Of a stretch of DNA of 64,000 nt, positions 27,653 through 62,032 are shown one piece after another. Every line of letters begins with the position of its first letter. Within the stretch, counting starts at the first letter, position 1. Both the position numbers and the translations under genes were made by a program. Source of the stretch: an uncultured Sphingomonas sp. (GTDB taxonomy: Bacteria > Pseudomonadota > Alphaproteobacteria > Sphingomonadales > Sphingomonadaceae); contig NZ_CAMLAC010000002.1 of the NCBI RefSeq assembly GCF_946477935.1, forward strand, positions 378 through 64,377. Reading direction: 5' to 3'. A model generated the notes under the pieces. It was not told the DNA's origin. It did no database searches and saw nothing but the letters and a program-made list of their open reading frames with translations.

Positions 27653-27904
27653 ACGCTAGAACCCGCCGACGGGAGAGGAGCGCGCCAAGCTGTCCACTGT
27701 CCTCTGCCTTCCTGTGCTGAGCAGCCAGTCGCTGCTCATAGGCAGAAGCGAGCGCGTCTCCTGCGTCGCGACGGTCCATCTTCTTAAGGCCTGACATCCA
27801 GCACGCTCACTCGCGAGCAGGTTGGCAGAGGCGCGCCGCCTTCGTTCACCGGGACAGGTGAATGCCCCGCACTGACAAATAGCCATGTCGCGGATCTCAA
27901 TCTA

Positions 27905-27955
27905 TATGCGTCACGCATACAGTTCGGGAACGCGGATGTCTATGCGTCACGCATA
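27905..27955. promoter_or_regulatory. Two copies of palindrome TATGCG-N3-CGCATA (27905-27919, 27941-27955)
   Basis: Both TATGCG-TCA-CGCATA, 36 bp apart, upstream of the YeeE/YedE gene. Confidence 0.8.
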
Positions 27956-28075
27956 TAATAGCAGAACTGATGCGCGTCGTTGCAACGGCCCTGCGCGCAA
28001 CGGGTGTGTCCGCGCCTCAGGCAATCACGCTTACCGGCTTCCCACGGTGCAAAATGCGCCGCCTGAACTGCGGGG

Positions 28076-29050
28076 TTGAGCACGATGCTGTCGTGGCTCG
28101 ATGTCGTTCTGAGTATGCTATCCTTCGGCTTCGGTTTCTCCGCTAATCAGGGGGGCACCTGTCTGGTCGCGGTCGCTGACGAGCTAGTCAGACGACGCCC
28201 TCCCAAAACTCTCATCGGACTTGTCGCAGCATCTGCGGCTGCCGGCCTTATAGCCGTGCCGCTCGCTTGGGCTGCGGTGATCGACGGACTATCGATCACC
28301 GCAGCCAGCATCCATGTTCCGCTCATGGTAGGTGCCGTTGCGTTCGGTATCGGAGCCCTCGTCAACGACACGTGCCTGTTGGGGTCGCTGGCTCGTTTAG
28401 GGGACGGCGAAATGCGGCTCTTGGCACTGCCCTTCGGATTAGCGGCCGGCATGCTGCTCATTGACCACGCGCGACTTGCTTCTGTCGCTACGTGGCCGAG
28501 CCCGCTTTCGACGCCAAGCCTGCTGGGTGCGGTTTGCCTGTTGAGCTTTTTGATCGTCCTGACGCTGGCATCCATCAAGCTAACGGCCACCGAGCCTCCG
28601 CTACCTAGGGGAAGATGGCCACTGGTATTGTCAATGCTGATCCTTGGAGCGACCGGCGGCGCGCTTTTTGCGCTGTCACCAACCTGGACACTCGCGCACC
28701 TGTTGCAGCACAGCCTTCTAGCCGGAGATATGCGCACCGGAATTGTCGCACTCCCGGCCGTTGCAGCATCGGTTGTCGGCGCATTCGCTGCGTCGATGTG
28801 GCAAGGCAATATGCGCCTTCAAACCCCTTCCACCCGTGACCTCTTTCGGACCTTTGGCGGCGGCCTCCTCATGGGGGTCGGGATCGCACTCATCCCCGGC
28901 GGAAACGACGGTTTGATCCTGTCGGCGATACCCGCGCTGTCGCCAGCCGGCTTCGCGGCTGTCCTTACGATGATCGCTACTATTCTGCTTGGTCTGATCG
29001 GACGCCGCCGACTGACCCGCGGCGGGCGCATCGATCCTCACCGAACATAG
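28076..29050 (+). CDS. YeeE/YedE-family (sulfur-compound transport) membrane protein
   Basis: Multi-TM; NQGGTCLV, FGIGALVNDTCLLGSL and GGLLMGVGIALIPGGNDG motifs. Confidence 0.75.
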   Translation: MSTMLSWLDVVLSMLSFGFGFSANQGGTCLVAVADELVRRRPPKTLIGLVAASAAAGLIAVPLAWAAVIDGLSITAASIHVPLMVGAVAFGIGALVNDTCLLGSLARLGDGEMRLLALPFGLAAGMLLIDHARLASVATWPSPLSTPSLLGAVCLLSFLIVLTLASIKLTATEPPLPRGRWPLVLSMLILGATGGALFALSPTWTLAHLLQHSLLAGDMRTGIVALPAVAASVVGAFAASMWQGNMRLQTPSTRDLFRTFGGGLLMGVGIALIPGGNDGLILSAIPALSPAGFAAVLTMIATILLGLIGRRRLTRGGRIDPHRT

Positions 29051-29478
29051 CTGCTGATCAAACTATAGGCCTTGGCCGGACCCGTCACGTCGATGATGAT
29101 CTCGAATGCGCCCGGCAGCGCAAGAGCGTAACGAACCTCGTACAGGTCGTCACCACAGTGGTGGACGTCGTCAGCTACCAGGCGTTCGCCGTCGGAGGCA
29201 TCGAACGTCAGGCGCACGAAGTCATTGCCTATCGTCGGCCCATCCGCAAACGCGACCGTGAAGCCTCTTTCGGAGGGCCGATAGGTGTAGCGCCGGTGAG
29301 ACGACAACTCGCGGCCGTCTCGCAATCTAAGCGTACCGCATTCCCGGTATGCGAAAATGCCGCCGAGTCCAGGCTCGAAGGTCGCCTTGCCGTGGAGCTG
29401 AGCGCCGGCACCTCTAATCTCTCGATCAAGCTGCCAGGCGCCGCTCAGGCTTCGAAGGAGGTTAGCCCCTTCAAGCAC
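29038..29478 (-). CDS. DUF6314-like protein
   Basis: GAWQLDREI...YRECGTL...YTY...F.DG...HHCGDDLYEVRY...GPAKAYSLISSY. Confidence 0.65.
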   Translation of the reverse strand: MLEGANLLRSLSGAWQLDREIRGAGAQLHGKATFEPGLGGIFAYRECGTLRLRDGRELSSHRRYTYRPSERGFTVAFADGPTIGNDFVRLTFDASDGERLVADDVHHCGDDLYEVRYALALPGAFEIIIDVTGPAKAYSLISSYVR

Positions 29479-29555
29479 GGCGAACCGTCATCCTGCGTGC
29501 TGTACACGCGCTGACGCGCCGCAGGAATATCTCCTGAAGCGCGAGCACGCGTCCG

Positions 29556-30041
29556 TTACGCCAGATGCGCCGGTCGCCGCTCGACCGAATTGAAGAACAG
29601 AACGAGCGACGCTGCGAGGAGGACGGCGTCCTTCAGCAGGAACTGACCCGGCGCCGCCGAAATCGCGGGGAATCCTCCCGCGCTGGCTTCCGCGACGCCC
29701 GGTGTGGTCACGAAGAATGTCAGCGTGATCAGGTAGGTGGCAACTGACATCAGCGCACCCAGCGCCGAGAAGACCGGCCGAAACGCGCCGATGGCGAGAG
29801 CCGCAGCCGTCGAGAGCTCGATGACCCCGATGAAGTAGCTCTGCCCTTGCGTTCCGAACATGCCGAGCCAGCTCATCAGCGGGCTATGCCCGATAAACGG
29901 AGCGATCCCGTCAGCTTCGTACATCGTGAACTTCATGGCACCGAACCATAGAAAGACCAAGACGAGCGCCCATCTCAGCAGCGCCAAGTCCTTTCTGTCT
30001 TGCTCGGCGACATGAAAGCGGTAGCGGTTCAGAAACGGCAT
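29556..30041 (-). CDS. DUF417/YkgB (RclC-like) inner-membrane protein
   Basis: LRWALVLVFLWFGAMKFTMYEADGIAPFIGHSPLMSWL...IGVIE...TLTFFVTTPG...GQFLLKD, the RclC/YkgB signature. Confidence 0.85.
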   Translation of the reverse strand: MPFLNRYRFHVAEQDRKDLALLRWALVLVFLWFGAMKFTMYEADGIAPFIGHSPLMSWLGMFGTQGQSYFIGVIELSTAAALAIGAFRPVFSALGALMSVATYLITLTFFVTTPGVAEASAGGFPAISAAPGQFLLKDAVLLAASLVLFFNSVERRPAHLA

Positions 30042-30089
30042 CTGGAACTCCTCAATGAAGATGATGTCGGTTGAGTAGGGTCGAGTGGC

Positions 30090-30599
30090 TCAATGGCGCC
30101 GCGCGCCCATCGGGCAGCCAAGACATTTTGCCTGATCGCAGAAGCGGCACGTTGGCAGCGCGCTCTGCGGATCATCGAGCAGCGAAGTGAGAATGGTGTC
30201 GGCGATCCGCTCCAAGACTGCGCGGTCGTTGTCAGGAACCCGAACCAACAAACCGGAGACCGCAGCATTTCTCAGACCGAGAAGTTTGGTTCGCTCGGCC
30301 TGACCCCGCCGTGTGAGCGTGATATGGGCGACGCGGCGGTCGGACGGCGACTGTGACTTTCCCACAAGGCCTTGATCATCCAGCCGCTCGACCACACGCA
30401 CCGTTCCGGCGTGCGAGAGGCGAAGGATTCGGCTGATCTGATCGATCGACATCCCCGGCTCGTGACCAATTGCGATCAGCGCGGCCGCAGTTTCCCCGCC
30501 CGCAGTGAACGCTTCGGCGATAGCAATCCGTACCCGATCGGACACGGCCTGAGAAAGCGCGCCGAAAACGTTGATCAGTCGATCTGAGGGCTCGTCCAT
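30090..30599 (-). CDS. MarR-family regulator with C-terminal C-x2-C-x4-C-x2-C motif (MarR1)
   Basis: LSHAGTVRVVERLDDQGLV...DRRVAHITLT wHTH; tail CRFCDQAKCLGCP; start uncertain (30599-30632). Confidence 0.85.
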   Translation of the reverse strand: MDEPSDRLINVFGALSQAVSDRVRIAIAEAFTAGGETAAALIAIGHEPGMSIDQISRILRLSHAGTVRVVERLDDQGLVGKSQSPSDRRVAHITLTRRGQAERTKLLGLRNAAVSGLLVRVPDNDRAVLERIADTILTSLLDDPQSALPTCRFCDQAKCLGCPMGARRH

Positions 30600-30622
30600 C
30601 ATCAGCATGACTCGATGGAATA

Positions 30623-30637
30623 TATGCGTCACGCATA
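30623..30637. promoter_or_regulatory. TATGCG-TCA-CGCATA palindrome upstream of MarR1
   Basis: Exact copy, 23 bp from the predicted start. Confidence 0.8.
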
Positions 30638-30790
30638 CACCTTCAATCGGCTTATGTCGAGTTAGAACCGGGAATTGTTGCGCCGGTCGTCCGGATCACC
30701 TCTTGTCGATGAGACTTTGACGATCGTGAGCCCGGCGCAGACAAGCCGCTCGGACGGATATATTCCGAGCGCCGGCGTCTCGCCGTATAG

Positions 30791-31807
30791 TCAGCTGTCC
30801 AATTTGCCCATCTCGAGTGCTGTATCGGCCATGCGGGTCGCAAAGCTCCACTCGTTGTCATACCAAGCAAGCACGCGAACCATTCGCCGGTCGACAACAT
30901 CGGTCTGAGGGAGTGCGACGATCGACGACTCGGTCCGATGGCTCAAATCGATCGATACCAGCGGTTCGGCGGTGACTGCCAGCACGCCCTGCATTGATCC
31001 ATCGGCAGCTTGCCGGATGGCTTCGTTCACTTCGTCAACGGTGACGTCGCGCATGGCGGACACAGCCAGGTCGATGACCGACACGTTGGGAGTGGGAACC
31101 CGGATCGACGATCCGTGCAGCTTGCCCTTCAACTCCGGCAATACGCGGCCAATGGCGTTCGCCGCGCCCGTCGACGTCGGGATCATCGAGAGGGCAGCCG
31201 CGCGGCCGCGATATGGGTCCGAGTGGACGGCATCGAGCGTCGGTTGGTCCCCGGTGTAGGCGTGAACAGTCGTCATGTAACCGCGCTCGATACCGAACAG
31301 ATCGTTCAGCACCTTCGCCACGGGTGCGAGCACGTTTGTCGTGCAGGAGCCGTTCGAAACGATCACATCTTCGCTCGTCAGCGTATCGTGATTGACCTTG
31401 AAGACGATCGTCTTGTCGGCGCCCTCGCTGGGCGCGGAGACGAGGACGCGCTTTGCGCCGGCGCGAAGGTGCGCGCTCGCCTTGTCCTTCGAGGTGAAGA
31501 ATCCAGAGCACTCCAGCGCTATGTCGACCCCGCACCGCTGATGAGGCAAGTCCGCAGGGTCGCGCTCCGTAGTGACTTCGATTTTTCCGGAGCCGACGTC
31601 GATCCAGTCGGTACCGATATCGATTTCACCCGGGAAGGGACCGTGAATCGAATCGTATTTGAGAAGGTGGGCCAGGGTAGCGACTGACGCGAGGTCGTTG
31701 ATCGCCACCACCTGGATATCCCGACGGCCGAGCTCGACCATCGAGCGCAACGTCAGACGACCGATGCGCCCGAAACCGTTGATCGCGACCCTGACCGTCA
31801 TGCGCAT
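30791..31807 (-). CDS. gap: Type I glyceraldehyde-3-phosphate dehydrogenase
   Basis: VAINGFGRIGR, SNGSCTTNVLAP, TVHAYTGDQ, AWYDNEW. Confidence 0.95.
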   Translation of the reverse strand: MRMTVRVAINGFGRIGRLTLRSMVELGRRDIQVVAINDLASVATLAHLLKYDSIHGPFPGEIDIGTDWIDVGSGKIEVTTERDPADLPHQRCGVDIALECSGFFTSKDKASAHLRAGAKRVLVSAPSEGADKTIVFKVNHDTLTSEDVIVSNGSCTTNVLAPVAKVLNDLFGIERGYMTTVHAYTGDQPTLDAVHSDPYRGRAAALSMIPTSTGAANAIGRVLPELKGKLHGSSIRVPTPNVSVIDLAVSAMRDVTVDEVNEAIRQAADGSMQGVLAVTAEPLVSIDLSHRTESSIVALPQTDVVDRRMVRVLAWYDNEWSFATRMADTALEMGKLDS

Positions 31808-31897
31808 TTCCTTCAGTTGCTGAGAAATGGTCGCTGGCAGCGGGCACCTGCTCGCTACCGTCTGGAAGAGGTTTGAGACTCAAGCCGACGCAATATA

Positions 31898-31912
31898 TAT
31901 GCGCGGCGCATA
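31898..31912. promoter_or_regulatory. TATGCG-CGG-CGCATA palindrome between divergent gap and rpiA
   Basis: Exact arms. Confidence 0.75.
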
Positions 31913-32053
31913 GACCTAATCGTCGGTTCCTGGCAGGTCAACATGGTGAGGCGATCGAGCGCAGCAGGCGGGTGCCCGTCAGCTCATTCGCTACCGTCGA
32001 GGATAGCAGGTACCCCGCTGAGTGAGGACCCGAGGGCAAGACGGGAGACGTGA

Positions 32054-32743
32054 GTGGTGTCTGACCTTGAAGCAGAAAAGGTTCTCGCGGCCAGACGAGC
32101 GGTCGATGAAGTCCAGGATGGCATGCTTGTTGGATTAGGGACTGGCAGCACGGCTAACTACGCAGTTAGATGCCTGGCCGAGCGGATTGCCAGCGGTCTC
32201 CGCATCACAGCGGTGGCAACGTCGCGAATGACCGAAGTCTTGGCCCGCGAACTGGCCATACCGCTGACATCCATGGAAGGTGTCAGCTCAATCGACCTCA
32301 CGATCGACGGCGCTGACGAGATCGATCACCGCTTGCAGGCGATCAAGGGCGGTGGGGGGGCCTTGCTGCGGGAAAAGGTCATTGCTGCCGCGTCAGCTCG
32401 CGTCATAGCCGTGGTCGATTCCAGCAAGTTCGTGACGCAGCTGGGCCGCTTCCCGTTACCGATCGAGGCCTTTCCATTCGCCACCGCTTTCGTCGGGGCG
32501 CGCCTCGCTGATCTTGGAGGCCCGGTGTCTCTGCGAATGGAGGACGGCCGTCCGTTCGTGACCGATCAGGGCAACCACATTCTGGACGTTGCGCTTGGAT
32601 CTATTGCGGATAGCCAGCAGACCGCGCTCGCGATTTCAGGCATTCCGGGCGTCGCCGGGCACGGCCTCTTCCTCTCTGAGATCGACACCGTCGTTATTGC
32701 CCACGGCGGCACGGTCGAGCTCCGGCACGCGGAGCGGTCGTGA
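32054..32743 (+). CDS. rpiA: Ribose-5-phosphate isomerase A
   Basis: VGLGTGST, DLTIDGADE, IKGGGGALLREK. Confidence 0.95.
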   Translation: MVSDLEAEKVLAARRAVDEVQDGMLVGLGTGSTANYAVRCLAERIASGLRITAVATSRMTEVLARELAIPLTSMEGVSSIDLTIDGADEIDHRLQAIKGGGGALLREKVIAAASARVIAVVDSSKFVTQLGRFPLPIEAFPFATAFVGARLADLGGPVSLRMEDGRPFVTDQGNHILDVALGSIADSQQTALAISGIPGVAGHGLFLSEIDTVVIAHGGTVELRHAERS

Positions 32744-32981
32744 TGTCCATCCAGTCGCTTGCGTCGATCGATTGCACCGTCACGTCGGCGATGAGATGGA
32801 GGGAAACCACACGAGATCTAGCGTTCACCTAGCTGTCATAGCCGCCGCGTATCATGCTATTCGACAGCACGTCGCAAATTCTGATGAGTCAGACGGTTGC
32901 CCACAGGGCGTAAGAGGCTGATAATACAGCACTTACTCGCATTCGAGCCGTCCGTGTCAAACCACGCCGAAGCTTGCTGTC

Positions 32982-32996
32982 TATGCGCCACGCACA
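32982..32996. promoter_or_regulatory. TATGCG-CCA-CGCACA (1 mismatch) upstream of MarR2
   Basis: 13 bp before the predicted start at 33010. Confidence 0.65.
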
Positions 32997-33009
32997 TATA
33001 ACGGCGCGA

Positions 33010-33534
33010 ATGGATGGACCTCGAGACCGTAACGTGTTCGGGGCGTTCGCACTCATGATCGGCGAGGACATCGTTCGCGCTAGTTCATCGCGGGCGCCTG
33101 AAGAAGGACCTGCCGCTTCGGCGTTGGCGCTGATTGCGCACAAGCCCGGGCTTTCGGTGAGAATGCTCGCGATTGGCGTAGGCTTGTCGCACGCGGCGGC
33201 GGTTCGCCTTGCAGATCGCCTTACTATTCAAGGGCTGATCGAGAGCCGGGCGAGTTCGTCCGACGGGCGGGTCCGCTCCCTGTATCTGACATCGGCCGGT
33301 CAGACGGCCAGCGCCGCGGTCCTAGCCGCTAGAGATGAGGTAATCGCGGAAGGGTTGTCGATCCTCAACAAGGGCGAAATGAAGTTCCTGGCCGACATTG
33401 CCGAGCGCGTATTACGCGACCGTTTGGAGAACCTCGAGCATTCTTACCGCATCTGCCGCCTGTGCTGCTACGAAGGCTGTACCGATTGTCCTATCGACGC
33501 CGAGCTGCACGAGCGGGGGCGGGACCGCGAGTGA
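33010..33534 (+). CDS. MarR-family regulator with C-terminal C-x2-C-x4-C-x2-C motif (MarR2)
   Basis: NVFGAF, LSHAAAVRLADRL, DGRVRSLYLT; tail CRLCCYEGCTDCP; paralog of MarR1; start uncertain (32974-33010). Confidence 0.85.
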   Translation: MDGPRDRNVFGAFALMIGEDIVRASSSRAPEEGPAASALALIAHKPGLSVRMLAIGVGLSHAAAVRLADRLTIQGLIESRASSSDGRVRSLYLTSAGQTASAAVLAARDEVIAEGLSILNKGEMKFLADIAERVLRDRLENLEHSYRICRLCCYEGCTDCPIDAELHERGRDRE

Positions 33535-33563
33535 GGGCCACATCCATCCGGGTATGAGCCGGA

Positions 33564-34349
33564 TTAGTGTTGCGCGATCAGGTAAGCGGCGAGGAAGCCA
33601 AGAACCGTGATCAGGCCTATGAAGGGAGGCGCATTCTCGAATGCTTCTGGGATCATGGCCTCCGCCAGCATGGCTAGTACGGCCCCCGCCGCGAACAGGA
33701 GGATCGCCGGCTCCTGCGCCGATGCTGAACCGAGCAGAAAATTCCCGGCGGCGGCAGCGATCCCTATGAGCAGCGGTATCCCGATCCAAATCGTGTAGAC
33801 GTACCGACGCGACCGGCCGGCCTGCTTCATCCCCGAGGTGCTCGACAGTCCCTGAGGCACGTTAGCTAGAAAGAAGCCCGCGATCACCGCCAAGCTGATC
33901 GCGCCGCCGCCGGCGACTGACATCCCGATCACCAGGGCCTCCGGTATTCCGTCAAGCACACTGCCGACCGCGATCGCAGACCCACTCCCGTGATGCTCTG
34001 CCTCGTTCGGTTGCTCGACGCATTCGCCGCAGCGCTTCCGGTTCTTCGCGCCGCGGCGGGCCAGATACCAGTTTATGCTGCTGAAAACCGCCGCCCCTGC
34101 TGGCAAGGCGACGGTTGGCCATATATCCGCCCCCGCCGCGTCCGGTCGGACGACGAGTTCGGTGGCTATCACGGCAAACAGGACGCCGCCGCCAAAGCCC
34201 ATGACGGCTGCAATCATCCGGTGGCTGAGCTTGCCGAAGAAAGCGTCCGCAACGATCGCGCCCAGAAGCAACCCGCTACCGGATACCAGACCCCACAGAC
34301 CGGCAACAAGGAACTCAGGGATCGGGGAAGCAGGAGAGCCCATAGCCAC
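33564..34349 (-). CDS. ZIP-family metal transporter
   Basis: LDGIPEALVIG, NVPQGLSS, GAVLAMLAEAMIPEAF; loop motif RKRCGEC. Confidence 0.8.
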   Translation of the reverse strand: MAMGSPASPIPEFLVAGLWGLVSGSGLLLGAIVADAFFGKLSHRMIAAVMGFGGGVLFAVIATELVVRPDAAGADIWPTVALPAGAAVFSSINWYLARRGAKNRKRCGECVEQPNEAEHHGSGSAIAVGSVLDGIPEALVIGMSVAGGGAISLAVIAGFFLANVPQGLSSTSGMKQAGRSRRYVYTIWIGIPLLIGIAAAAGNFLLGSASAQEPAILLFAAGAVLAMLAEAMIPEAFENAPPFIGLITVLGFLAAYLIAQH

Positions 34350-34444
34350 TCAGCCTCTTTCAGATGATGTCGACACGCAGGATCGCTCGGTTGCGCATTC
34401 ACAAACGACCGGACGCGCGGGCGACTGGCGGCATCGCCACATCC

Positions 34445-35023
34445 TCACCGCTGTCGATCCAGGCGCCAATTGGGGCGCGCGAAGTGGCAGCTATAACCCC
34501 GTGGGTGGCGAACGAGGTACTTCTGATGCTCCGGCTCCGCTTCCCAGAAAGGCTCTTCGGGATTGATTTCGGATAAGACTGGCCCTGGCCATAGACCTGA
34601 CGCTTCGATCTCCTCGATCGTCGCCAAGGCAACTTCCATCTGACGCTTGTCGGTATAGAAAATAGCGGAGCGGTAGCTCGGACCGACGTCGCTACCTTGT
34701 TGCTCGTAGGTTGTGGGATCGTGGATCTGAAAGAAGAGCTCCAGCAAAGTTCGATAGCTCAGAAGGGCCGGGTCGAAGACCACTTCTACCGCCTCCGCGT
34801 GCCCATGATGATCATCGTAGGTCGGCGCCGCCATCTCACCGCCGATATATCCGACGCGCGTCGAGATGACCCCCCGCTTGCGACGCAGCAGATCCTCCAA
34901 ACCCCAGAAGCAGCCGCCGGCGAGTATCGCTCGCTCCGTACGGCTCGCCCCATCTCCGGCAACCCTGTCGCTTTCGGATCGCTCACTTACTGATCGATCC
35001 TGATTGTCGCCACCGGATGCCAT
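34445..35023 (-). CDS. msrA: Peptide-methionine (S)-S-oxide reductase, copy 1
   Basis: [45 protein letters not shown]. Confidence 0.93.
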
Positions 35024-35025
35024 GC

Positions 35026-36273: not shown

Positions 36274-36392
36274 CTATGGGCACCGATCGACGATCTCTGC
36301 CAGCCCGCGAGAGGGGTGATCGTCACCACCTCGCGTCTCACTGGGCCGCACAGCATCGGCATCGGCACCTGTCTCCACAGGCATCCTTTTTA

Positions 36393-36447
36393 TATGCGTC
36401 ACGCATATAGACAAGCCCCTACCGCCAAACTATATGCGTCGCGCATA
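36393..36447. promoter_or_regulatory. Two TATGCG-N3-CGCATA palindromes (36393-36407, 36433-36447) between divergent osmC-hydrolase and lysR
   Basis: Exact arms, 40 bp apart. Confidence 0.8.
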
Positions 36448-53630: not shown

Positions 53631-55373
53631 ATGCTCGTGATGCTTCTGCTGCTGCTCTCCTACCTCGCCGGCGTGCTGACGATCATCAGCCCATGCATCC
53701 TGCCGGTGCTGCCCTTCGTCTTCGCGCGAGCAGGCCAGCCGTTCATGCGCAGTGGCCTGCCGCTACTGCTGGGGATGGCGGTGACCTTTGCCGGGGTAGC
53801 GACACTGGCCGCCGTCGGAGGCGGCTGGGCCGTCCAGGCGAATAGCTTCGGGAGAGCAGTGGCGCTGCTAATATTGGGATTGTTCGGCCTGCTGCTGCTC
53901 TTTCCCGCGCTTGCGGATCGAGCCACCCGACCGCTCGTCAAGCTGGGCGCCCGTCTCACAGAAGCGACCGGCCCGGAACGTTCCGGCGGCAGCTTCTGGG
54001 CGTCCCTGCTGCTTGGGTTCGCCACCGGTCTTCTATGGGCTCCCTGCGCGGGACCGATACTGGGGCTGATCCTGACCGGAGCCGCCTTGCAGGGCGCCAA
54101 TGTCGGCACGTCGCTGCTGCTGCTCGCCTACGCCGCCGGTGCCGCTACGTCGCTAGCACTGGCGCTGCTCCTCGGCGGACGCGTTTTCGCCGCGATGAAG
54201 CGGTCGATCCGTGTCGGCGACTGGTTCCGCCGTTCGCTCGGCGCGCTGGTGCTCGTCGCCGTGGCCGCCATCGCGCTGGGGCTCGACACGGGCCTGCTGA
54301 CCAGGCTCTCGCTTGCCGGCACGTCGGCCGTCGAACAGAGGCTCCTAGACAAGTTCCGGCTGGACGATCGCTCGGCGCAGACCAGCATGCCGGGAGACGG
54401 CCCACTCGGCATCGAAGGGGCGTTGCCTCCGCTCACCGGTGCAACGAGTTGGCTGAACTCTCCGTCGCTCACGCGCGAGGCGTTGCGCGGAAAGGTCGTC
54501 CTGGTCGATTTCTGGACTTACAGCTGCATCAACTGCCTGCGGACGCTGCCGTACGTCAAAGCCTGGGAGCAGAAGTATCGGGCCGCCGGGTTCGTCGTGA
54601 TCGGGGTTCACGCCCCCGAGTTCGCCTTCGAGAAGGATCCCAGTAACGTCGCGAAGGCCGTGCGTGACCTGGGCATCACCTATCCCGTCGCGCTCGACAA
54701 CAATCACGCAATCTGGCGCGCCTTCGACAACCGCTATTGGCCAGCGCATTACTTCATCGATGGCCGCGGCCGCATTCGATACCATCATTTCGGCGAAGGC
54801 AATTACGCCGAATCCGAGAAGGTCATCCAGCGGCTCCTCGCCGAGAATGGCCAGGCGGTCGGCGACATGCGAACCGTATCGGTGCGCACGGCGGGATCCT
54901 CCGCGGCGGCGAGCTGGAACGATGTACGCTCACCCGAGACCTACCTGGGCTATGTGCGTGGCGAGCGTTTCACGTCACCGGGCGGCCTCGCGCGCGAAAC
55001 CGTGCATGACTATGTCGCGCCGCCTCGGCTGCCTCTGAACGCCTGGGCGCTTTCCGGCCGCTGGATCGCGGGGTCGGAACATGCCTCGGCCCAATCCGCC
55101 GGTGCCCGCCTCGTCTACCGTTTTCATGCCCGCGACGTGCACCTTGTGCTCGGCCCTTCCACCATGGGACGGCGGGTTCGATTCCGCGTCACGATCGACG
55201 GCAAGCCGCCCGCTGGCGATCACGGCACGGACATCGATGACGCTGGGAACGGCACGATCGAGGGACAACGTCTCTATCAGCTCGTTCGGCAGAAGGGCGC
55301 CGTGCGCGAGCGTACCTTCTCGATCGAGTTCCTAGATGCCGGCGCTCAGGCTTTCGCCTTCACCTTCGGCTGA
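53631..55373 (+). CDS. dipZ: DipZ-like protein (CcdA/DsbD membrane domain plus thioredoxin domain)
   Basis: SPCILPVLP, WAPCAGPILG, VDFWTYSCINC, HAPEFAFEK, ETYLGY. Confidence 0.9.
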   Translation: MLVMLLLLLSYLAGVLTIISPCILPVLPFVFARAGQPFMRSGLPLLLGMAVTFAGVATLAAVGGGWAVQANSFGRAVALLILGLFGLLLLFPALADRATRPLVKLGARLTEATGPERSGGSFWASLLLGFATGLLWAPCAGPILGLILTGAALQGANVGTSLLLLAYAAGAATSLALALLLGGRVFAAMKRSIRVGDWFRRSLGALVLVAVAAIALGLDTGLLTRLSLAGTSAVEQRLLDKFRLDDRSAQTSMPGDGPLGIEGALPPLTGATSWLNSPSLTREALRGKVVLVDFWTYSCINCLRTLPYVKAWEQKYRAAGFVVIGVHAPEFAFEKDPSNVAKAVRDLGITYPVALDNNHAIWRAFDNRYWPAHYFIDGRGRIRYHHFGEGNYAESEKVIQRLLAENGQAVGDMRTVSVRTAGSSAAASWNDVRSPETYLGYVRGERFTSPGGLARETVHDYVAPPRLPLNAWALSGRWIAGSEHASAQSAGARLVYRFHARDVHLVLGPSTMGRRVRFRVTIDGKPPAGDHGTDIDDAGNGTIEGQRLYQLVRQKGAVRERTFSIEFLDAGAQAFAFTFG

Positions 55374-55433
55374 GAACGAAATGCCTGTGGAATCGCAATC
55401 GACCTCAACAACGAACGATCGGAGAGAGTAGCC

Positions 55434-55706
55434 ATGACGCCCGAAATTATCCTCTACACGACCAATTGGTGCCCTTTTTGCCGCCGCGCGAGGGCGCTTC
55501 TCACCCAGAAGGGCGTGAAATGGACTGAACACGACATCGAGGAGGATCCTGCTCAGCGCCAGGCAATGATCGAGGCCTCAGGCCGGGACACGGTTCCACA
55601 GATATTCATCAACGGCACGCACGTCGGAGGGTCTGATGACCTCTTTGATCTCGATGCCAAAGGCGGCCTCGACAAGCTGCTCGCAGGTGAGGCGTCCGCG
55701 ACCTGA
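55434..55706 (+). CDS. grxC: Glutaredoxin 3
   Basis: WCPFC, TVPQIFI, GGSDDL. Confidence 0.93.
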   Translation: MTPEIILYTTNWCPFCRRARALLTQKGVKWTEHDIEEDPAQRQAMIEASGRDTVPQIFINGTHVGGSDDLFDLDAKGGLDKLLAGEASAT

Positions 55707-55754
55707 TGCGACTGGCAAAGGCGCGCCCAGACATCGATGGAATGAAGGAACAGA

Positions 55755-56036
55755 ATGGTTTCGGCAGTTTGGAACGGCGCCACTATCGCCGCGAGCGAAG
55801 TGACCGTGATCGTCGACGGAAATCACTATTTTCCGCCAGAGGCGGTTGACCAAAGCAGGCTCGAGGCGAGCGATCACTCGTCCGTCTGTCCAGTCAAGGG
55901 CTCAGCGCGCTATTTTCATGTGCGGGCGGGCGGCGAGCGCAATCCGGATGCGGCCTGGACGTACCCCGACCCGACCGCAGAAGCCGAAGCGATCAGGGGT
56001 TATTTCGCATTCTGGAAGGGCGTGGAGGTTGCGTAG
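55755..56036 (+). CDS. DUF427-family protein
   Basis: GNHYFPPE, SVCPVKGSARY, AAWTYPDP, AFWKGV. Confidence 0.9.
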   Translation: MVSAVWNGATIAASEVTVIVDGNHYFPPEAVDQSRLEASDHSSVCPVKGSARYFHVRAGGERNPDAAWTYPDPTAEAEAIRGYFAFWKGVEVA

Positions 56037-56060
56037 GCCCCGCCTCGGAGGCGGCCGCTG

Positions 56061-57806
56061 ATGCCGGCAGCGCTTCATGCTCGCGTTTCCGCACATCTTG
56101 AGCAGGCGCTCGACGTGCTGGAGGCGTCTGGCGACCTGCCGGCCGGTCTCGCACGAAGTGGCGTGACCGTGGAAACGCCGCATGACGCTGCGCACGGCGA
56201 CCTGTCGACCAACGCCGCAATGGTGATGGGGAGACGTGCCGGCGTGCCGCCGCGGCAGCTCGCCGAGGCGCTGGCCAGCCGGCTGGCGGCGCTCGAGGAA
56301 GTGACGAGTGTCGAGGTCGCCGGGCCGGGCTTCGTCAATCTGCGGCTGACCGATCACGCGTGGCGGGACGAGCTGGCGACGATCGCACATTCTGGCGAGC
56401 GATATGGCAGCTCGGGGTTTGGTGCCGGCAAAACGGTGAATATCGAATATGTCTCGGCCAACCCGACCGGCCCGATGCACATGGGACATTGCCGCGGAGC
56501 GGTCGTGGGGGACGCGCTGGCGAACCTGCTCGCGTTCACCGGGCACCGCGTGATCCGCGAATACTACGTCAACGACGCCGGCGGACAGGTGGACGTCCTC
56601 GCCAGATCCGCGCACATCCGCTACCTCGAGGCGCTGGGCGACAGCGTTGGTGATATCCCGGAAGGCCTCTATCCGGGCGACTATCTCAAGCCCGTCGGCC
56701 AGGCCTTGGCCTCGGACTACGGCGACCGCTACCGACAAGCCCCGCCTACCGCATGGCTTCCGATATTCCGCTCGCGCGCCGTCGCAGCGATGATGGAAAC
56801 GATCCGTGCGGACCTCGCGCTGCTGGGCGTTCGTCACGACCGCTTCGCATCGGAAGCCGAACTGCTCGAGACGGGAAGGCCGGCCGCCGCCGAGGCTTGG
56901 CTGCGCGAGCGCGATCTCATCTATAATGGGGTGCTTGACCCTCCGAAGGGGTCGAAGCCGGAGGACTGGCAACCGATCGAACTTCCGCTGTTTCGCTCGA
57001 CACTTTTTGGCGATGATCAGGATCGGCCGATCCGCAAGGCAGATGGAAGCTGGTCCTACTTCGGCATCGACCTAGCCTACCACTTCGAGAAGGCACGCGA
57101 CGCCGATCAGATGATCGACGTCTGGGGCGCGGACCATGCCGGCACGGTGAAGCGGATCATCGCGGCTACCGAAGCCCTCACCGAAGGGCGCAAGCGCTTC
57201 GACATCAAACTGGTGCAGCTCGTTCGCCTGCTCCGCGCGGGCGAGCAGGTGAAGATGTCGAAGCGCGCCGGCAACTTCGTGACGCTTTCCGACGTCGTTC
57301 GGGAAGTCGGCAAGGACGTCGTCCGCTTCACCATGCTGACCCGTAAGGCCGAAGCGCCGATGGACTTCGACTTCGCGAAGGTCGTCGAGGCATCCAAAGA
57401 TAACCCGGTCTTCTACGTGCACTATGCCCATGCGCGCATCCACTCGCTCGCGAATCGCGCGGCCGAAGCCGCCTTCGAGCAGGGGGCGACACCCGACCTG
57501 ACCCGACTGGACGACCGTGACCTCGCTCTCGTGAAACAAGCGGCACAATTTCCGCGCATCGTGGAGGCATCTGCCGCCGCCCGCGAACCGCATCGGATCG
57601 CCTTCTACCTCGCTGACCTCGCGGCCGCATTTCACGCCATGTGGAACGCCGGCATCGATGATCCGCAGCGCCGCTTCATCCTGAAAGACGACGCCCCGCT
57701 CAGTCACGCCCGCCTCTCGCTGGCGAACGCCGTCGGACAGGTGATCCGCAACGGCATGGCGCTAATGGGGGTCGAACCGATGCAGCAGATGCCTCGCGCG
57801 CCGTGA
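56061..57806 (+). CDS. argS: Arginine-tRNA ligase
   Basis: HGDLSTN, EYVSANPTGPMHMGH (HIGH), EYYVNDAG, VWGADHAG, KMSKRAG, VHYAHAR; full length, 581 aa. Confidence 0.96.
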   Translation: MPAALHARVSAHLEQALDVLEASGDLPAGLARSGVTVETPHDAAHGDLSTNAAMVMGRRAGVPPRQLAEALASRLAALEEVTSVEVAGPGFVNLRLTDHAWRDELATIAHSGERYGSSGFGAGKTVNIEYVSANPTGPMHMGHCRGAVVGDALANLLAFTGHRVIREYYVNDAGGQVDVLARSAHIRYLEALGDSVGDIPEGLYPGDYLKPVGQALASDYGDRYRQAPPTAWLPIFRSRAVAAMMETIRADLALLGVRHDRFASEAELLETGRPAAAEAWLRERDLIYNGVLDPPKGSKPEDWQPIELPLFRSTLFGDDQDRPIRKADGSWSYFGIDLAYHFEKARDADQMIDVWGADHAGTVKRIIAATEALTEGRKRFDIKLVQLVRLLRAGEQVKMSKRAGNFVTLSDVVREVGKDVVRFTMLTRKAEAPMDFDFAKVVEASKDNPVFYVHYAHARIHSLANRAAEAAFEQGATPDLTRLDDRDLALVKQAAQFPRIVEASAAAREPHRIAFYLADLAAAFHAMWNAGIDDPQRRFILKDDAPLSHARLSLANAVGQVIRNGMALMGVEPMQQMPRAP

Positions 57807-57896
57807 ACCTTCGAGCCGCGGCTATACTGCCTACTTGTCGGCGCCCCTGCTTTCGACCGGCGCTCGCACATCAAATCCTCAACAGGAGAAGCTCGA

Positions 57897-58652
57897 ATGT
57901 CGAAAGTTCTACAAGGGAAGGTCGCGTTGATCACCGGCGGCTCTCGGGGTCTCGGTGCCGTGCTGGCAGAGACGCTCGCCGACCAGGGAGCAGATATCGC
58001 GATCACCTACGCCGCATCTGCCGCCAAGGCTGAAGCCGTGGTCGAGAAGGTGAGGGCCAAAGGGGTGCGGGCGATCGCCATTCAGTGCGATCAGGCGGAT
58101 AGCGCGGCTGCGCAGCCGATGGTCGAGCAGGTGGTCTCTGAGTTCGGCAAGCTCGACATCCTCATCAACAACGCAGCGATCGCGGTCCAGGGCAAGCTGG
58201 TCGATGATCCCACGCTTGATGGCCCTGCCTTTGACAAGCAGTGGATCGTCAACGTGCTCGGGACCGTGGCGGTAACGCGGGCGGCGGCGCAAAAGATTTC
58301 GGACGGCGGCCGGATCGTCTTCATCGGGTCCGGACTTGGCACGCGCGCGATCGTTCCGGGGGTTGCCGATTACGCCGGCACTAAGGCGGCCATCGCCGGA
58401 TATGCCCGCGGCGTGCAGCGCGATCTGGGGCCGCGCAATATCACGGTGAACGTGGTGCAGCCGGGCATCATGCCGACCGACATGGCGGCAGGAGCTGCGG
58501 AAAATTTCCCTGAAGCCGTCCTGGACCTACACCCGATACGTCGCATCGCTACCATCGAGGAAGTCGCGTCCGCGGTGAGCTACCTCGTTGGTCCGACCGC
58601 CAGCTACACAGCCGGGGCCGTGATCGACGTGTCCGGCGGTGTCCTGGTCTAG
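57897..58652 (+). CDS. Short-chain dehydrogenase/reductase
   Basis: TGGSRGLG, NNAAI, YAGTK, QPG. Confidence 0.92.
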   Translation: MSKVLQGKVALITGGSRGLGAVLAETLADQGADIAITYAASAAKAEAVVEKVRAKGVRAIAIQCDQADSAAAQPMVEQVVSEFGKLDILINNAAIAVQGKLVDDPTLDGPAFDKQWIVNVLGTVAVTRAAAQKISDGGRIVFIGSGLGTRAIVPGVADYAGTKAAIAGYARGVQRDLGPRNITVNVVQPGIMPTDMAAGAAENFPEAVLDLHPIRRIATIEEVASAVSYLVGPTASYTAGAVIDVSGGVLV

Positions 58653-58794: not shown

Positions 58795-59061
58795 ATGGAA
58801 AACCCCGATTTCGAAGCTACGCTCGAAGGTCTGCCGCGCGGCTATAGCGAAGGGTTTTTCGATGGCCGCCGCTATGGCGTGTCGGTGCAGCGATCTGACG
58901 ACGGTCGGCGAAATAGCCTGTTTGCGAGAGATCTCGCCGGCACCGACATCGTGAGCTTCAATCTGTACCGAGTGGCGAACGGCGAGACGTTGCTCAGGCC
59001 TTGCGAGATGTCCTCGGAGAAAGTGGTCCGCTTTGTGCTTGGGTTCACGCCCGTCAACTAA
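58795..59061 (+). CDS. Small hypothetical protein with C-terminal PCEM motif (88 aa)
   Basis: SFNLY...LRPCEM; protein-like composition; single Cys. Confidence 0.65.
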   Translation: MENPDFEATLEGLPRGYSEGFFDGRRYGVSVQRSDDGRRNSLFARDLAGTDIVSFNLYRVANGETLLRPCEMSSEKVVRFVLGFTPVN

Positions 59062-59126
59062 CTTCTCTCTCGCACGCCGTGCAAGGGTTGGAAACACAAA
59101 CGCTACTCGCGCCTTAGCCGCTGAAG

Positions 59127-59156
59127 GCTATCGAAACTATAGCTGCCGGTTATTGG
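59127..59156 (+). promoter_or_regulatory. 30-bp LysR/OxyR-like box upstream of dps
   Basis: GCTATCGAAACTATAGCTGCCGGTTATTGG. Confidence 0.75.
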
Positions 59157-59251
59157 ACATCGATCCAAGCCAAACTCATTCTGTCGGCCTCAGCGGCCGA
59201 AGGGGAATCGATGCCGGCTCCTGTGAAAGCCACCATTCAGGGAGTCTATCG

Positions 59252-59752
59252 ATGACCAACGCCAGTACTGCGCCAGTTGCAACTCCCACCGACCTCGACG
59301 AGTCTGCTACGATGACCGTAGCCGATGCGCTCAAGATCATTCTGGCGAACAGCTATGCGGTATATCTCAAGACCAAGAATTTTCACTGGCACGTCTCCGG
59401 GCCATATTTCCGTGACTATCACCTCCTGCTCGATGAACAGGCGGCCGAGATCCTCGCGGTCACGGATGCTATCGCCGAGCGTGCCAGGAAGACTGGCAAT
59501 CGCACGCTAACATCGATCGGTGACATCGCACGCCACCAGACCATCAAGGACAACGACGCCGAATTTGTAACTCCGCAGGAGATGCTGGGCGAGTTAAGGG
59601 CCGACAATTTGCACATGGTGGAAGCGTTCCGGCGCGCGAAGGAGGTCGCGGACGAGGCGAAGGATAACGCCACCTCTGGCCTCATCGATGCATGGACTGA
59701 TGAAGCCGAACGCCGCGCATGGTTCCTTTTCGAAGCCAGCCGGCCCGGCTGA
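59252..59752 (+). CDS. dps: Dps-family ferritin-like DNA protection protein
   Basis: KTKNFHWHVSGPYFRDYHLLLDEQ...DAIAER ferroxidase signature. Confidence 0.93.
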   Translation: MTNASTAPVATPTDLDESATMTVADALKIILANSYAVYLKTKNFHWHVSGPYFRDYHLLLDEQAAEILAVTDAIAERARKTGNRTLTSIGDIARHQTIKDNDAEFVTPQEMLGELRADNLHMVEAFRRAKEVADEAKDNATSGLIDAWTDEAERRAWFLFEASRPG

Positions 59753-59893
59753 CGGCCGCCAACTAGGCATCGCTGCGCGGCCGAACCGATTGCGCCCGCC
59801 AGACAATAGCAAACCGCCGGGGCGCCGGTCGACGTGAAGCAGGCTCGAGGCCGATCCACGCGGCTTGTCGATCTGATATTATGAGGAAGCTGT

Positions 59894-60760
59894 ATGACCG
59901 CTGGCCACTTGCCCACGCAATTCGTGCAACATGAGGGCGGGGCCGTGGCATTCGACGACACGGGAGGCGCAGGTCCGATCGTTCTCGGCATACCCGGGAT
60001 GGGCGACCTGCGATCCGAGTATCGCCGCTTGAAGCCCATCCTGCAGCAGGCGGGAATGCGGTTTGTCACGATGGACGTCCGCGGCTTCGGAGAAACGTCG
60101 GCACAATGGGACGATTATTCAGCCCGCGCCGTCGGCCGCGACGCTGTGGCCATCATCCGACACCTGGACGCTGGACCGGCGTTCATCTTGGGCAACTCAT
60201 TTGCTGCAGGGTCCGCGCTATGGGCGGCGAAAGAAGCGCCCAGCATGGTCCAGGGAGTTGTCCTGCTGGGCCCGATCGTACGCGATCTTCCACTATCCGC
60301 GGCGCAGAAGCTCGCTCTTACGATCGGGTTCGCCGGCCCTTGGCGCACATGGTTCTGGACCACATATTGGACCAGCCTTTTCACTTCACAACGAGCGCCA
60401 GACCATGCCGAGGTGAAGCGGACGATCGCCCGCAACCTGAACGAGCCCGGTCGAATGGACGCACTGCTCAAGATGCTATCGCTATCGAAAGCAGACACTG
60501 CGGCCATCTTGGACGACAGCGTTGTTCGGGCACTTATAGTGATGGGTACGCGCGACCCGGACTTCTCCGATCCCGGCGCCGAAGCTGAAATGCTCGCTGC
60601 ACAGCTCAATGCGGAGACGATGATGCTAGAGGGCGCCGGTCACTATCCCCACGTCGAGATGGCCGATGTGGTCGGGCATCGGATTACGGCATTCATTAGC
60701 GGTGCTCGCTCCCGGAGGAGAACGAACGGCGCTGCACCTGCCTTCCCGAGGAGACTATAA
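59894..60760 (+). CDS. Alpha/beta hydrolase
   Basis: GIPGMGD, DVRGFGET, GNSFAA, GAGHYPH. Confidence 0.85.
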   Translation: MTAGHLPTQFVQHEGGAVAFDDTGGAGPIVLGIPGMGDLRSEYRRLKPILQQAGMRFVTMDVRGFGETSAQWDDYSARAVGRDAVAIIRHLDAGPAFILGNSFAAGSALWAAKEAPSMVQGVVLLGPIVRDLPLSAAQKLALTIGFAGPWRTWFWTTYWTSLFTSQRAPDHAEVKRTIARNLNEPGRMDALLKMLSLSKADTAAILDDSVVRALIVMGTRDPDFSDPGAEAEMLAAQLNAETMMLEGAGHYPHVEMADVVGHRITAFISGARSRRRTNGAAPAFPRRL

Positions 60761-61245
60761 TGAAAATCGGGTTTGGTGGCGGCTGCCATTGGTGCACGGA
60801 GGGCGTCTTTCAGGCGCTCAAAGGTGTCACCCAGGTGGACCAGGGCTTCCTTCAATCTGAGCCTCCCGCGGACACTTGGGCCGAAGGCGTCATCGTGACT
60901 TTCGATCCGTCCGTTATCAGTCTGGAGACGCTGGCCGAAGTGCATCTTCGAACGCACTCTTCGACCAGAGCACGTTCACCCCGCGGGAAGTATCGCAGCG
61001 CGATCTACACTTTCGAATCTCCACAACGTCCGGGAGCTGAGCGGGCAGTGCGCCGATTCGCGGACGAGGCTTCGAAAGAAATTCACACGCAGGTGATACC
61101 CTTCGTCGGCTTCTTACCGTCGGACGAGCGCTACCAGAACTACTATCGTACCGATCCTACCCGCCCGTTCTGTCGTCGGTACATTGATCCGAAGCTCGAT
61201 TTTATCCGACGCGAGTATGCGGACATTGCGCTGCCCTCGGAGTGA
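60760..61245 (+). CDS. msrA: MsrA-family protein, copy 3, variant active site GCHWC
   Basis: GGGCHWCTEGVF, EGVIVTFDP, YRSAIY, RYQNYY, PFCRRYI; TAATG overlap with the hydrolase. Confidence 0.8.
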   Translation: MKIGFGGGCHWCTEGVFQALKGVTQVDQGFLQSEPPADTWAEGVIVTFDPSVISLETLAEVHLRTHSSTRARSPRGKYRSAIYTFESPQRPGAERAVRRFADEASKEIHTQVIPFVGFLPSDERYQNYYRTDPTRPFCRRYIDPKLDFIRREYADIALPSE

Positions 61246-61351
61246 GCTCTTCGAGAAAATGCTCGTCGAGTAGTCGGGCCAGTCTCACGCAGACCTTCCG
61301 ATCGCAAAGCTGCGTGAGTCCCCGGAAACATCAGGCCGCGAGTTTAGATGC

Positions 61352-62032
61352 ATGACCCATCAGCTTTCGGACACTGATCCGTTCAACGACGCCTTCGGAC
61401 GCTGCCCGCTTGTAGCGATCTTACGCGGCGTCCGTCCTGGGGAGGTGCGGGCGATCGGCGAAGCGCTCGTTGAAGTGGGCATTGTCCTGATAGAGATACC
61501 GCTTAATTCCCCGCAGCCGCTGCTCAGCATCGAGCTTCTAGCAAAGCATCTTGCGAACCGGGCGGTCGTGGGAGCAGGCACCGTTATCCGAGCCGAGGAT
61601 GTCTCAAGGATCGACGATGCCGGCGGTCGGCTTGTCATCGCGCCAAATACGGACGTCCGCGTCATCGCCGCCGCATCCGAGCGAGGCATGGTGGCGCTGC
61701 CGGGCTTCGCGACACCCACAGAGGCAGTCGCGGCGATAGCGGCGGGTGCGACGGCGCTTAAACTCTTTCCGGCCGAGGGTTTCACCCCGGCGTTCGTAAA
61801 GGCGTCACTGGCGGTGTTGCCTCAACGCACCCGAGTCCTCCCGACAGGCGGAATCCTCCCTGAAACGATGGGGCGCTGGCGATCGGCAGGCGCTGCCGGC
61901 TTCGGGCTAGGTTCAGCACTCTACTCGGCCGGCATGACCCATGTCGAGGTGCGCGCCCGAGGTCAGGCTTTCGTCACTGCTCACCAAGCGCTTTCGTCGG
62001 GATCCGGTAGCGAGACGGCGCTCGCCCATTGA
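61352..62032 (+). CDS. 2-dehydro-3-deoxy-6-phosphogalactonate aldolase (DgoA/Eda family)
   Basis: LVAILRG, IEIPLNSP, VGAGTV, ALKLFPA, LPTGG. Confidence 0.88.
   Translation: MTHQLSDTDPFNDAFGRCPLVAILRGVRPGEVRAIGEALVEVGIVLIEIPLNSPQPLLSIELLAKHLANRAVVGAGTVIRAEDVSRIDDAGGRLVIAPNTDVRVIAAASERGMVALPGFATPTEAVAAIAAGATALKLFPAEGFTPAFVKASLAVLPQRTRVLPTGGILPETMGRWRSAGAAGFGLGSALYSAGMTHVEVRARGQAFVTAHQALSSGSGSETALAH

Follow-up and report, generated by a model that had tools for sequence, protein, structure and literature searches.

Organization of the island

The DNA analysed here, referred to below as the window, is a stretch of 64,000 nucleotides of contig NZ_CAMLAC010000002.1 from an uncultured Sphingomonas sp., and all coordinates are positions within it. 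Between 28.06 and 61.24 kb it carries a 33-kb block of about 40 genes, named here the island, whose products are engaged in the repair of oxidised methionine (Met) and cysteine (Cys) residues and in the supply of reducing power. The island is syntenic in three proteobacterial classes, is rare among the relatives of its host, and bears two sets of promoter motifs whose number is significant and whose position is conserved. Open reading frames (ORFs) were called from their length and third-position GC content, and their products were scanned against Pfam and NCBIfam. Nearly every gene listed in a preliminary description of this DNA, which had drawn a redox island of ~34 kb at 27900-62032, was found at its given place. 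The scans added genes coding a thiolase, a GAF-HWE histidine kinase with a response regulator, proteins of the DUF6314 and DUF427 families, ArgS, an SDR protein, a second hydrolase, an MFS transporter, the KDPG aldolase Eda and two conserved proteins of unknown function. They also bear out the earlier statement that catalase, AhpC/AhpF and superoxide dismutase (SOD) are missing, none of them having a match among the ~40 island genes. The limits of the block are those of its collinearity with a plasmid of Sphingomonas paucimobilis (28059-61235). Since collinear homology ends at position 61235, eda and the recombinase gene that follows it fall outside the shared unit.

The left arm starts with the gene of a YeeE/YedE-type sulphur (thiosulfate) transporter (28076-29050, + strand), recognised by its Pfam Sulf_transp domain (81.8 bits) and by an ortholog annotated YeeE/YedE. 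It is followed on the - strand by genes coding a DUF6314 protein (29038-29478; PF19834, 100.6 bits), a DUF417 membrane protein that is RclC-like and devoid of Cys (29556-30041; Pfam DUF417, 109.8 bits), the regulator MarR1 (30090-30632, likely true start 30599; Pfam MarR/MarR_2), which ends in a CxxC-x4-CxxC tail, and an extra GAPDH (gap, 30791-31807). The latter is 59% identical to the chromosomal copy, and its active-site motif at 31331-31345 reads SCTTNV instead of the usual SCTTNC, so that the second Cys of the active-site region is missing. RpiA (32054-32743, + strand; Pfam) is the sole homolog of this enzyme found, no second rpiA being detected by tblastn in an assembly that is 96.5% complete; the host may rely on the plasmid gene, use RpiB, or hold its own copy in an assembly gap. 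Next comes MarR2 (32974-33534, + strand, likely true start 33010; Pfam MarR/MarR_2) with an invariant CRLCC-x3-C-x2-C tail. The ZIP-family metal transporter of the preliminary description (33564-34349, - strand) has no Pfam match and keeps its name through an 88% identical RefSeq ortholog, annotated 'ZIP family zinc transporter'. MsrA1 (34445-35023, - strand; 181 bits, GCFWG motif) shares an operon (34445-36273) with a fusion of an alpha/beta-hydrolase to OsmC (35026-36273, - strand). The arm is closed by a LysR-family regulator gene (36521-37393, + strand), whose ATG at 36521 was placed from the position of the helix-turn-helix motif.

The core operon (37541-41520, + strand) codes MsrB, MsrA2, a Nu-class GST, CorA and two proteins of 190 and 149 residues, and this gene order is kept in more than 10 taxa. 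MsrB (37541-37984, + strand; 164 bits) has the motif RYCINS, MsrA2 (37986-38525, + strand; 192 bits) the motif GCFWG, and the GST (38658-39362, + strand) is YghU/YfcG-like, with matches of 169 and 139 bits, respectively. The 190-residue protein (40422-40994, + strand) belongs to a family of 365 sequence clusters with three conserved Cys and no Pfam domain. Its AlphaFold2 model is poor (predicted local distance difference test, pLDDT, of 57) and a Foldseek search of it against the PDB gave nothing meaningful (best E 0.09, template-modelling score 0.2). Sequence searches of the PDB with this protein and with the 149-residue one (41071-41520, + strand) were empty. Note that the two proteins accompany the core in every case.

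The right arm begins on the - strand with a group of genes (41540-44928) coding a redoxin with the motif WCRGC, a DM13 protein with an amino-terminal membrane anchor, a short-form Gnd (42906-43910, - strand), whose score of 454 bits lies above the NCBIfam cut-off, and an MFS transporter; both Cys of the redoxin are retained in all of 10 orthologs. In the opposite direction, Trx7 (45245-46168, + strand; NF041383, 328 bits) is a thioredoxin-like protein with the motif VPGCATC, the Cys form of a selenoprotein family. It had been described as a fusion of thioredoxin to an MsrA-like domain: the thioredoxin-like protein is there, and the likeness of its carboxyl-terminal half to MsrA is weak (pairwise E 4e-5, CFW motif). 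Downstream lie the gene of a molybdenum (Mo) protein of 201 residues with the SUOX fold (46570-47175, + strand; PF00174, Oxidored_molyb, 127.6 bits) and, overlapping it, that of an FNR-type FAD/NAD(P)H reductase (47168-47914, + strand). The single Cys of the Mo protein, Cys78, is kept by all of 12 orthologs, as expected of a Mo ligand, and no signal peptide is seen in its sequence, which places it in the cytoplasm. An identity with MsrP of the MsrPQ system was rejected, since the MsrP model gives 37 bits for a cut-off of 207, the signal peptide is lacking and the partner is a FAD/NAD reductase.

The remaining genes of the right arm are all on the + strand. The long operon that opens with the SUOX-like gene goes on to code a CurA-like MDR reductase, the thiolase and a PIG3-type MDR quinone oxidoreductase (47987-51435), the GAF-HWE histidine kinase with its single-domain response regulator (51540-53520), which are present in the two sphingomonad copies only, and then DipZ, Grx3, the DUF427 protein, ArgS and the SDR protein (53631-58652). 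The right end (58795-62032) codes an 88-residue protein of unknown function, Dps, an alpha/beta hydrolase, a divergent MsrA-like protein and Eda. Three msrA genes beside msrB had been announced; two are canonical, and the third, MsrA3 (60760-61245, + strand; PMSR 82.7 bits), has the motif GCHWC and scores 68 bits with TIGR00401, below its cut-off of 108. Three island proteins match NCBIfam '(seleno)protein' families, namely the VPGUxxT family, an OsmC-related family and, weakly, YedE. Hardening of the island paralogs to oxidation through loss of Cys or Met was considered and is unsupported, their counts being like those of the chromosomal copies (C3/M10 versus C4/M7 for gap and C1/M16 versus C1/M12 for argS). 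The full-length ArgRS lying within a redox operon (56061-57806) is 70% identical to the product of the chromosomal argS on contig C9. Four island copies, those of S. paucimobilis, Sphingopyxis, Proteobacteria bin13 and the window, share this argS at 73-86% identity.

Regulators and promoter motifs

Two distinct motifs recur in the promoters of the island. The first is a MarR-type palindrome, TATGCG-N3-CGCATA, with six perfect copies and one carrying a single mismatch, all within 27905-36447, a count reached by none of 100 shuffles. Two of them (TATGCGTCACGCATA; 27905-27955) lie 121-171 bp upstream of yeeE, where the S. paucimobilis plasmid has one perfect palindrome and one with two mismatches. 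A third covers the marR1 promoter (30623-30637) and overlaps a predicted -10 element, which is the only informative outcome of a generic scan for sigma-70 promoters and terminators. The fourth, in the divergent promoter region of gap and rpiA (31898-31912), is kept in S. paucimobilis and Sphingopyxis, while in island copies without gap a MarR box precedes the DUF417 gene. The fifth is found just upstream of marR2 (32982-32996). The last two form a pair with a spacing of 40 bp between the abh-OsmC gene and lysR (36393-36447); their ends are 74 and 114 bp upstream of the lysR ATG, and the spaced pair is kept in each of six island copies examined.

The palindromes at both marR genes are 14-38 bp upstream of the likely start codons and overlap the promoters. 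With a winged helix-turn-helix domain and an operator-like palindrome over their own promoter, MarR1 and MarR2 have the features of autoregulated MarR repressors and are predicted to act as such. Their CxxC-x4-CxxC tail, termed Cys4 below, is invariant across a tight subfamily (at least 64% identity) with members in Mesorhizobium, Haematobacter, Stenotrophomonas, Brucella, Enterobacter and sphingomonads.

The second motif, GCTAT-N-GAAACTATAG, is a candidate LysR-type box built on the core CTAT-N7-ATAG, which is of the T-N11-A type, and the count of these boxes is likewise reached in none of 100 shuffles. It is found 114 bp upstream of msrB (37412-37427, + strand), in the divergent promoter region of the redoxin and Trx7 genes (45124-45139, - strand), 220 bp upstream of the SUOX-like gene (46335-46350, + strand) and upstream of dps (59127-59142, + strand). 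Six other copies have the msrB box; its offset is 111-122 bp in five of them and 175 bp in the metagenome-assembled genome (MAG) of a Hyphomicrobiaceae bacterium. For the SUOX-like gene it is 220-228 bp in six of seven other copies, the Hyphomicrobiaceae MAG again differing (88 bp), and it is alike in the copies of Klebsiella, Thauera, Sphingopyxis, S. paucimobilis and Sphingomonas PP. The LysR regulator keeps all four of its Cys in six of six orthologs; of its six Met, one is conserved and two are variable. Its best NCBIfam matches are CynR, AlsR and OxyR, all far below cut-off.

Since the two sets of cis-motifs are separate and each is conserved in position, the island holds two predicted regulons, in line with the two-tier regulation proposed earlier. 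The assignment of the first motif to MarR and of the second to LysR is inferred from the autoregulatory position of the palindromes and from the co-occurrence of regulators and motifs. A cascade from MarR to LysR had been deduced from MarR boxes in the lysR promoter. The boxes are real and conserved as a pair, and the cascade is plausible; what speaks against it is that the intergenic region is divergent, and the target of the boxes may be the abh-OsmC-msrA1 operon in place of lysR, or both. The GAF-HWE kinase and single-domain response regulator coded at 51540-53520 resemble pairs that feed the general stress response of alphaproteobacteria, and they may tie the island to that of its host.

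Distribution and horizontal transfer

Other copies were found by a search anchored on the SUOX-like protein, extension of the flanks of each match and tblastn of all island proteins. The megaplasmid of S. paucimobilis (NZ_CP065714) has 34 of 40 genes at 77-82% nucleotide identity, collinear over the whole block, from which it differs by four single-gene insertions or deletions (gnd, the first MDR gene, the SDR gene and the second hydrolase gene). Collinear sets are also present in Sphingopyxis witflariensis (~29 genes), a Proteobacteria MAG (bin13; ~27), Thauera (24), the Hyphomicrobiaceae MAG (17), a wastewater plasmid of Klebsiella michiganensis (15), Vreelandella stevensii (12) and Pseudomonas paracarnis (12). 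Protein identity among the copies is typically 65-95% across three proteobacterial classes. The preliminary description had named co-inheritance in other genomes among the checks on its island, and the genes are co-inherited. The variable cargo of other copies codes AzoR, an Lpd-type flavoprotein, a TrxR-like protein and a GlcG-like protein.

In PLSDB, at least 133 plasmids match the core; their hosts belong to Klebsiella, Enterobacter, Citrobacter, Acinetobacter, Pseudomonas and Aeromonas, and many of the plasmids come from sewage, hospital wastewater or patients. Of 301 species genomes from the family of the host, two code the island-specific 190-residue protein, and a protein identical to it is coded on at least 20 metagenome contigs. 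Such scarcity in related genomes, together with near identity across classes, is what horizontal transfer is expected to leave, and these comparisons point to it.

Two shortened variants of the island are interrupted by insertion sequence (IS) elements. That of Pseudomonas aeruginosa pHN39-SIM (L098, 11626-20853) has as a neighbour, at a distance of ~2.6 kb, a class 1 integron in which blaSIM-2 resides, and that of the Klebsiella wastewater plasmid (L004, 7453-25013) adjoins a Tn21-type mer operon.

Possible links to reactive chlorine species

The preliminary description had listed an RclC-like gene. For the DUF417 protein coded at 29556-30041, RclC is the only NCBIfam match, with 94.7 bits for an equivalog cut-off of 275 bits (NF040476), below which it thus stays. 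Eight of nine other genomes tested have their DUF417 gene linked to the core. At the edge of the gammaproteobacterial variant, in V. stevensii (L093, 2502-3895) and P. paracarnis (L057, 14532-15925), a more remote DUF417 gene (43-45% identity) is tail-to-tail with an ORF of 281 codons. The product scored, that of V. stevensii, is an AraC regulator whose best NCBIfam match is RclR (100 bits for a cut-off of 400, versus 55 bits for the next family). This variant has its regulator swapped and its RclC-like gene retained.

Methionine is oxidised far faster by HOCl than by H2O2, and sensors of HOCl are known in the LysR, AraC and MarR families. The island codes three to four sulfoxide-reductase systems without scavengers of peroxide or superoxide. 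Its Klebsiella variant has a RidA-family gene with a relative in Escherichia coli that works as a holdase chaperone during HOCl stress, and a RidA-like ORF of the Hyphomicrobiaceae variant was identified by eye only. Barnum and Coates list Msr subfamilies as neighbours of chlorite dismutase (Cld), and MsrA (WP_003464967) and MsrB (WP_003464965) of pHN39-SIM are example accessions of these Cld-linked subfamilies (PMC9751292). The cld gene itself was rejected as part of the island: neither the host genome nor 12 of the 14 island-bearing genomes or records code Cld (PF06778), and in the remaining two cld is on other contigs, with one strong and one weak match.

Relationship to known systems

In kind, the island comes nearest to ICE-βox of Legionella pneumophila, an integrative conjugative element (ICE) whose transfer raised resistance to bleach and H2O2 and which was proposed by its authors to aid survival in chlorinated engineered water (PMC4010831). 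Like the island it is mobile, with duplicated msrA/msrB and thiol-redox cargo. It differs in being flanked by tRNA, with its own type IV secretion system (T4SS) and an ahp homolog, and it is set apart by its description, which mentions no RclC-like, SUOX-like/FNR, MarR-Cys4, LysR or pentose-phosphate genes (PMC4010831).

Nearest in their parts are the Rcl system, the MrpX-YedY module of perchlorate-reduction islands, the cld neighbourhoods and the HOCl-sensing regulators. The RclR-rclABC system of E. coli shares with the island the DUF417 family, to which RclC belongs. In the gammaproteobacterial variants an AraC regulator with RclR as its best match lies beside the DUF417 gene. RclA and RclB are missing here, and the regulator beside the DUF417 gene of the window is a MarR instead of an AraC protein. 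Membership in rclABC was rejected on the sub-threshold RclC score and on the lack of RclA and RclB among the 40 genes. RclA is also absent from the variable cargo of other copies, the flavoprotein of Sphingopyxis being of the Lpd type (649 bits, versus 110 bits for RclA with a cut-off of 740).

The module against reactive chlorine species (RCS) of perchlorate-reduction islands, which codes MrpX-YedY1 and a sigma/anti-sigma pair (PMC4436054), is likewise transferred horizontally and employs a SUOX-family Mo enzyme in RCS defence; cld neighbourhoods (PMC9751292) are also transferred horizontally and combine Msr enzymes with such a defence. The Mo enzyme of the island differs in being cytoplasmic, of ~200 residues, and coded beside a flavin reductase instead of MsrQ, and the island codes neither a methionine-rich peptide nor an ECF sigma factor nor Cld.

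The regulators are of the same families as HypT (LysR) and OhrR/SlyA-type MarR proteins, and a switch by oxidation of Cys or Met would match the logic of these proteins and of zinc-thiolate switches such as Hsp33. HypT is specific for HOCl and is activated through Met123, Met206 and Met230. No specific sequence relationship joins it to the LysR regulator of the island, and the Cys4 tail of MarR1 and MarR2 was matched to no characterised sensor. In outline, the island resembles the rclABC, MsrPQ and ICE systems, and it lacks the traits that define membership in each of them.

No description or functional study of the island was found in the literature. The earlier statement that it is not a described island stands in this respect; the concept has its precedent in ICE-βox (PMC4010831), and fragments are tabulated in GIPye2 of Paracoccus yeei, where an MsrA (179 residues), an MsrB (147 residues) and a second MsrA (177 residues) are listed as putative virulence factors (PMC6209633). 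GIPye2 is a strain-variable island and its MsrA and MsrB have the lengths of those of the window; the paper gives neither an island-level description nor its regulation (PMC6209633). The parts of the island that are uncharacterised are the Cys4-MarR subfamily with its operator, the cytoplasmic SUOX-like/FNR pair and the 190- and 149-residue families.

Proposed function and alternative explanations

On balance, the evidence tilts slightly towards a mobile and self-regulated island that guards proteins against strong two-electron oxidants, among which reactive chlorine species are the most probable. The model that follows rests on gene content and motif position, and the motif-binding proteins, the inducer and the enzyme substrates named in it are those that we infer. 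Two MarR repressors with the invariant Cys4 tail would occupy the TATGCG-N3-CGCATA boxes, which would be freed by oxidation of the Cys4 centre or of a metal bound there. The first wave of expression would then provide thiosulfate import by YeeE, the RclC-like protein, GAPDH, RpiA, the OsmC fusion with MsrA1 and, probably, the LysR regulator. The latter, with its four conserved Cys, would act in turn at the GCTAT-N-GAAACTATAG boxes and drive four operons. Their products would repair sulfoxides (MsrB, MsrA2, the MsrA-like protein, the Trx-MsrA-like protein, the Mo enzyme with its NAD(P)H-flavin reductase), restore the thiol-disulfide balance of cytoplasm and envelope (Grx3, the Nu-class GST, the redoxin, DipZ, DM13), supply NADPH (Gnd, Eda), clean up electrophiles (MDR and SDR reductases) and protect iron and DNA (Dps).

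The preliminary description had proposed a chlorine-tolerance island. Its horizontal movement and its dedication to Met and Cys repair, not to peroxide scavenging, are upheld; chlorine specificity is plausible. Several observations weigh against it. The DUF417 protein and the AraC regulator are distant relatives of RclC and RclR (94.7/275 and 100/400 bits, respectively), and rclA, rclB and cld are absent from both the island and the host genome. The LysR regulator has no specific similarity to HypT, no HypT model being among its NCBIfam matches, and no depletion of Cys or Met is seen in the island paralogs relative to the chromosomal copies. The habitats in which carriers were found (wastewater, hospitals) would suit a chlorine defence, but this signal is confounded by sequencing and sampling bias. 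Finally, OsmC, Dps, the quinone/alkenal (MDR) reductases and the AzoR-type cargo suit peroxide or electrophile stress equally well.

This last point leads to the strongest alternative, namely a general defence against oxidative and electrophile stress (H2O2, organic peroxides, quinones, phagocyte or amoebal bursts, photo-oxidation) that has no chlorine specificity and meets chlorine as one oxidant among several. We give it an appreciable likelihood, although one well short of even. OsmC, Dps, Grx, the GST and the CurA-like and PIG3-like reductases have general functions of this sort, the variable cargo of other copies (AzoR, the Lpd-type flavoprotein, the TrxR-like and GlcG-like proteins) is of the same kind, the GAF-HWE kinase/response regulator recalls general-stress pairs, and ICE-βox guards against H2O2 and bleach alike. 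A general defence accounts poorly, however, for some 40 genes without catalase, AhpCF or SOD, for three to four sulfoxide-reductase systems directed to a residue far more reactive with HOCl than with H2O2, and for an RclC-like gene that is conserved and paired with an RclR-like regulator in gammaproteobacterial variants.

A role in homeostasis of metals, metalloids or sulphur and selenium (copper, selenite, tellurite, sulphur compounds), served by YeeE, ZIP, CorA, DipZ and Cys versions of selenoprotein families, is very improbable. It draws on the three '(seleno)protein' family matches, on the presence of two metal importers and of DipZ, and on the mer operons adjoining enterobacterial copies, but the block has no metal efflux pump, metal reductase or regulator of the MerR, ArsR or CsoR type, importers would aggravate metal stress, the conserved core consists of Msr enzymes, and the mer linkage stems from the transposon context. 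Equally poor in probability is an accretion of unrelated plasmid cargo with no common function or control, for which the modularity revealed by the four single-gene differences from S. paucimobilis and by the IS/transposon rearrangements of enterobacterial copies could be invoked, against a gene order that is retained in three proteobacterial classes with proteins 65-95% identical, two positionally conserved cis-motifs common to island promoters and a redox or repair function in nearly every gene.

An extended form of the chlorine reading is conceivable but on the unlikely side: a transmissible regulon for chlorine or chloramine tolerance, spreading on carbapenemase-integron/mer plasmids among water-system and clinical bacteria, with a zinc or iron-sulphur Cys4-MarR sensor, a cytoplasmic Mo-dependent reductase of sulfoxides or N-chloramines driven by the NAD(P)H-flavin reductase, and two conserved proteins without a recognised fold. 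If the island raises tolerance to chlorine oxidants, it would be a transmissible disinfectant-tolerance trait, and since variants lie near a blaSIM-2 integron and a mer operon, water chlorination could then co-select antibiotic resistance. The island also offers candidates for the biology of reactive chlorine, namely for the role of RclC/DUF417 proteins, for a cytoplasmic counterpart of MsrP and for a Cys4-MarR redox sensor with a defined operator.

Carrier replicon and neighbouring genes

The island had been placed on a conjugative element. A TrwC/MobF relaxase and a TraD/TrwB coupling protein are indeed coded in the backbone of the carrier (8209-13665, + strand), and no mating-pair-formation genes accompany them within the 64-kb window. 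The first 14 kb of the window are ~81% identical to sphingomonad megaplasmids, and the contig has a GC content of 63.4% versus 66.3% for the genome. No tRNA and no match to an Rfam family are present in the window, nor were flanking repeats found, although a tyrosine recombinase gene is present at the right edge of the island (62184-63233, + strand), outside the shared block. An ICE was rejected on the lack of tRNA, of repeats and of T4SS genes beyond relaxase and coupling protein, together with the megaplasmid-like backbone. Because of this backbone and of the missing tRNA, the carrier is best read as a mobilisable or conjugative megaplasmid rather than as an ICE.

Between the relaxase gene and the island lie an imuA-imuB-dnaE2 error-prone polymerase cassette and a SRAP (YedK-like) gene (17771-25024). 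The tyrosine recombinase of the right edge is 42% identical to another recombinase, coded on contig C1.

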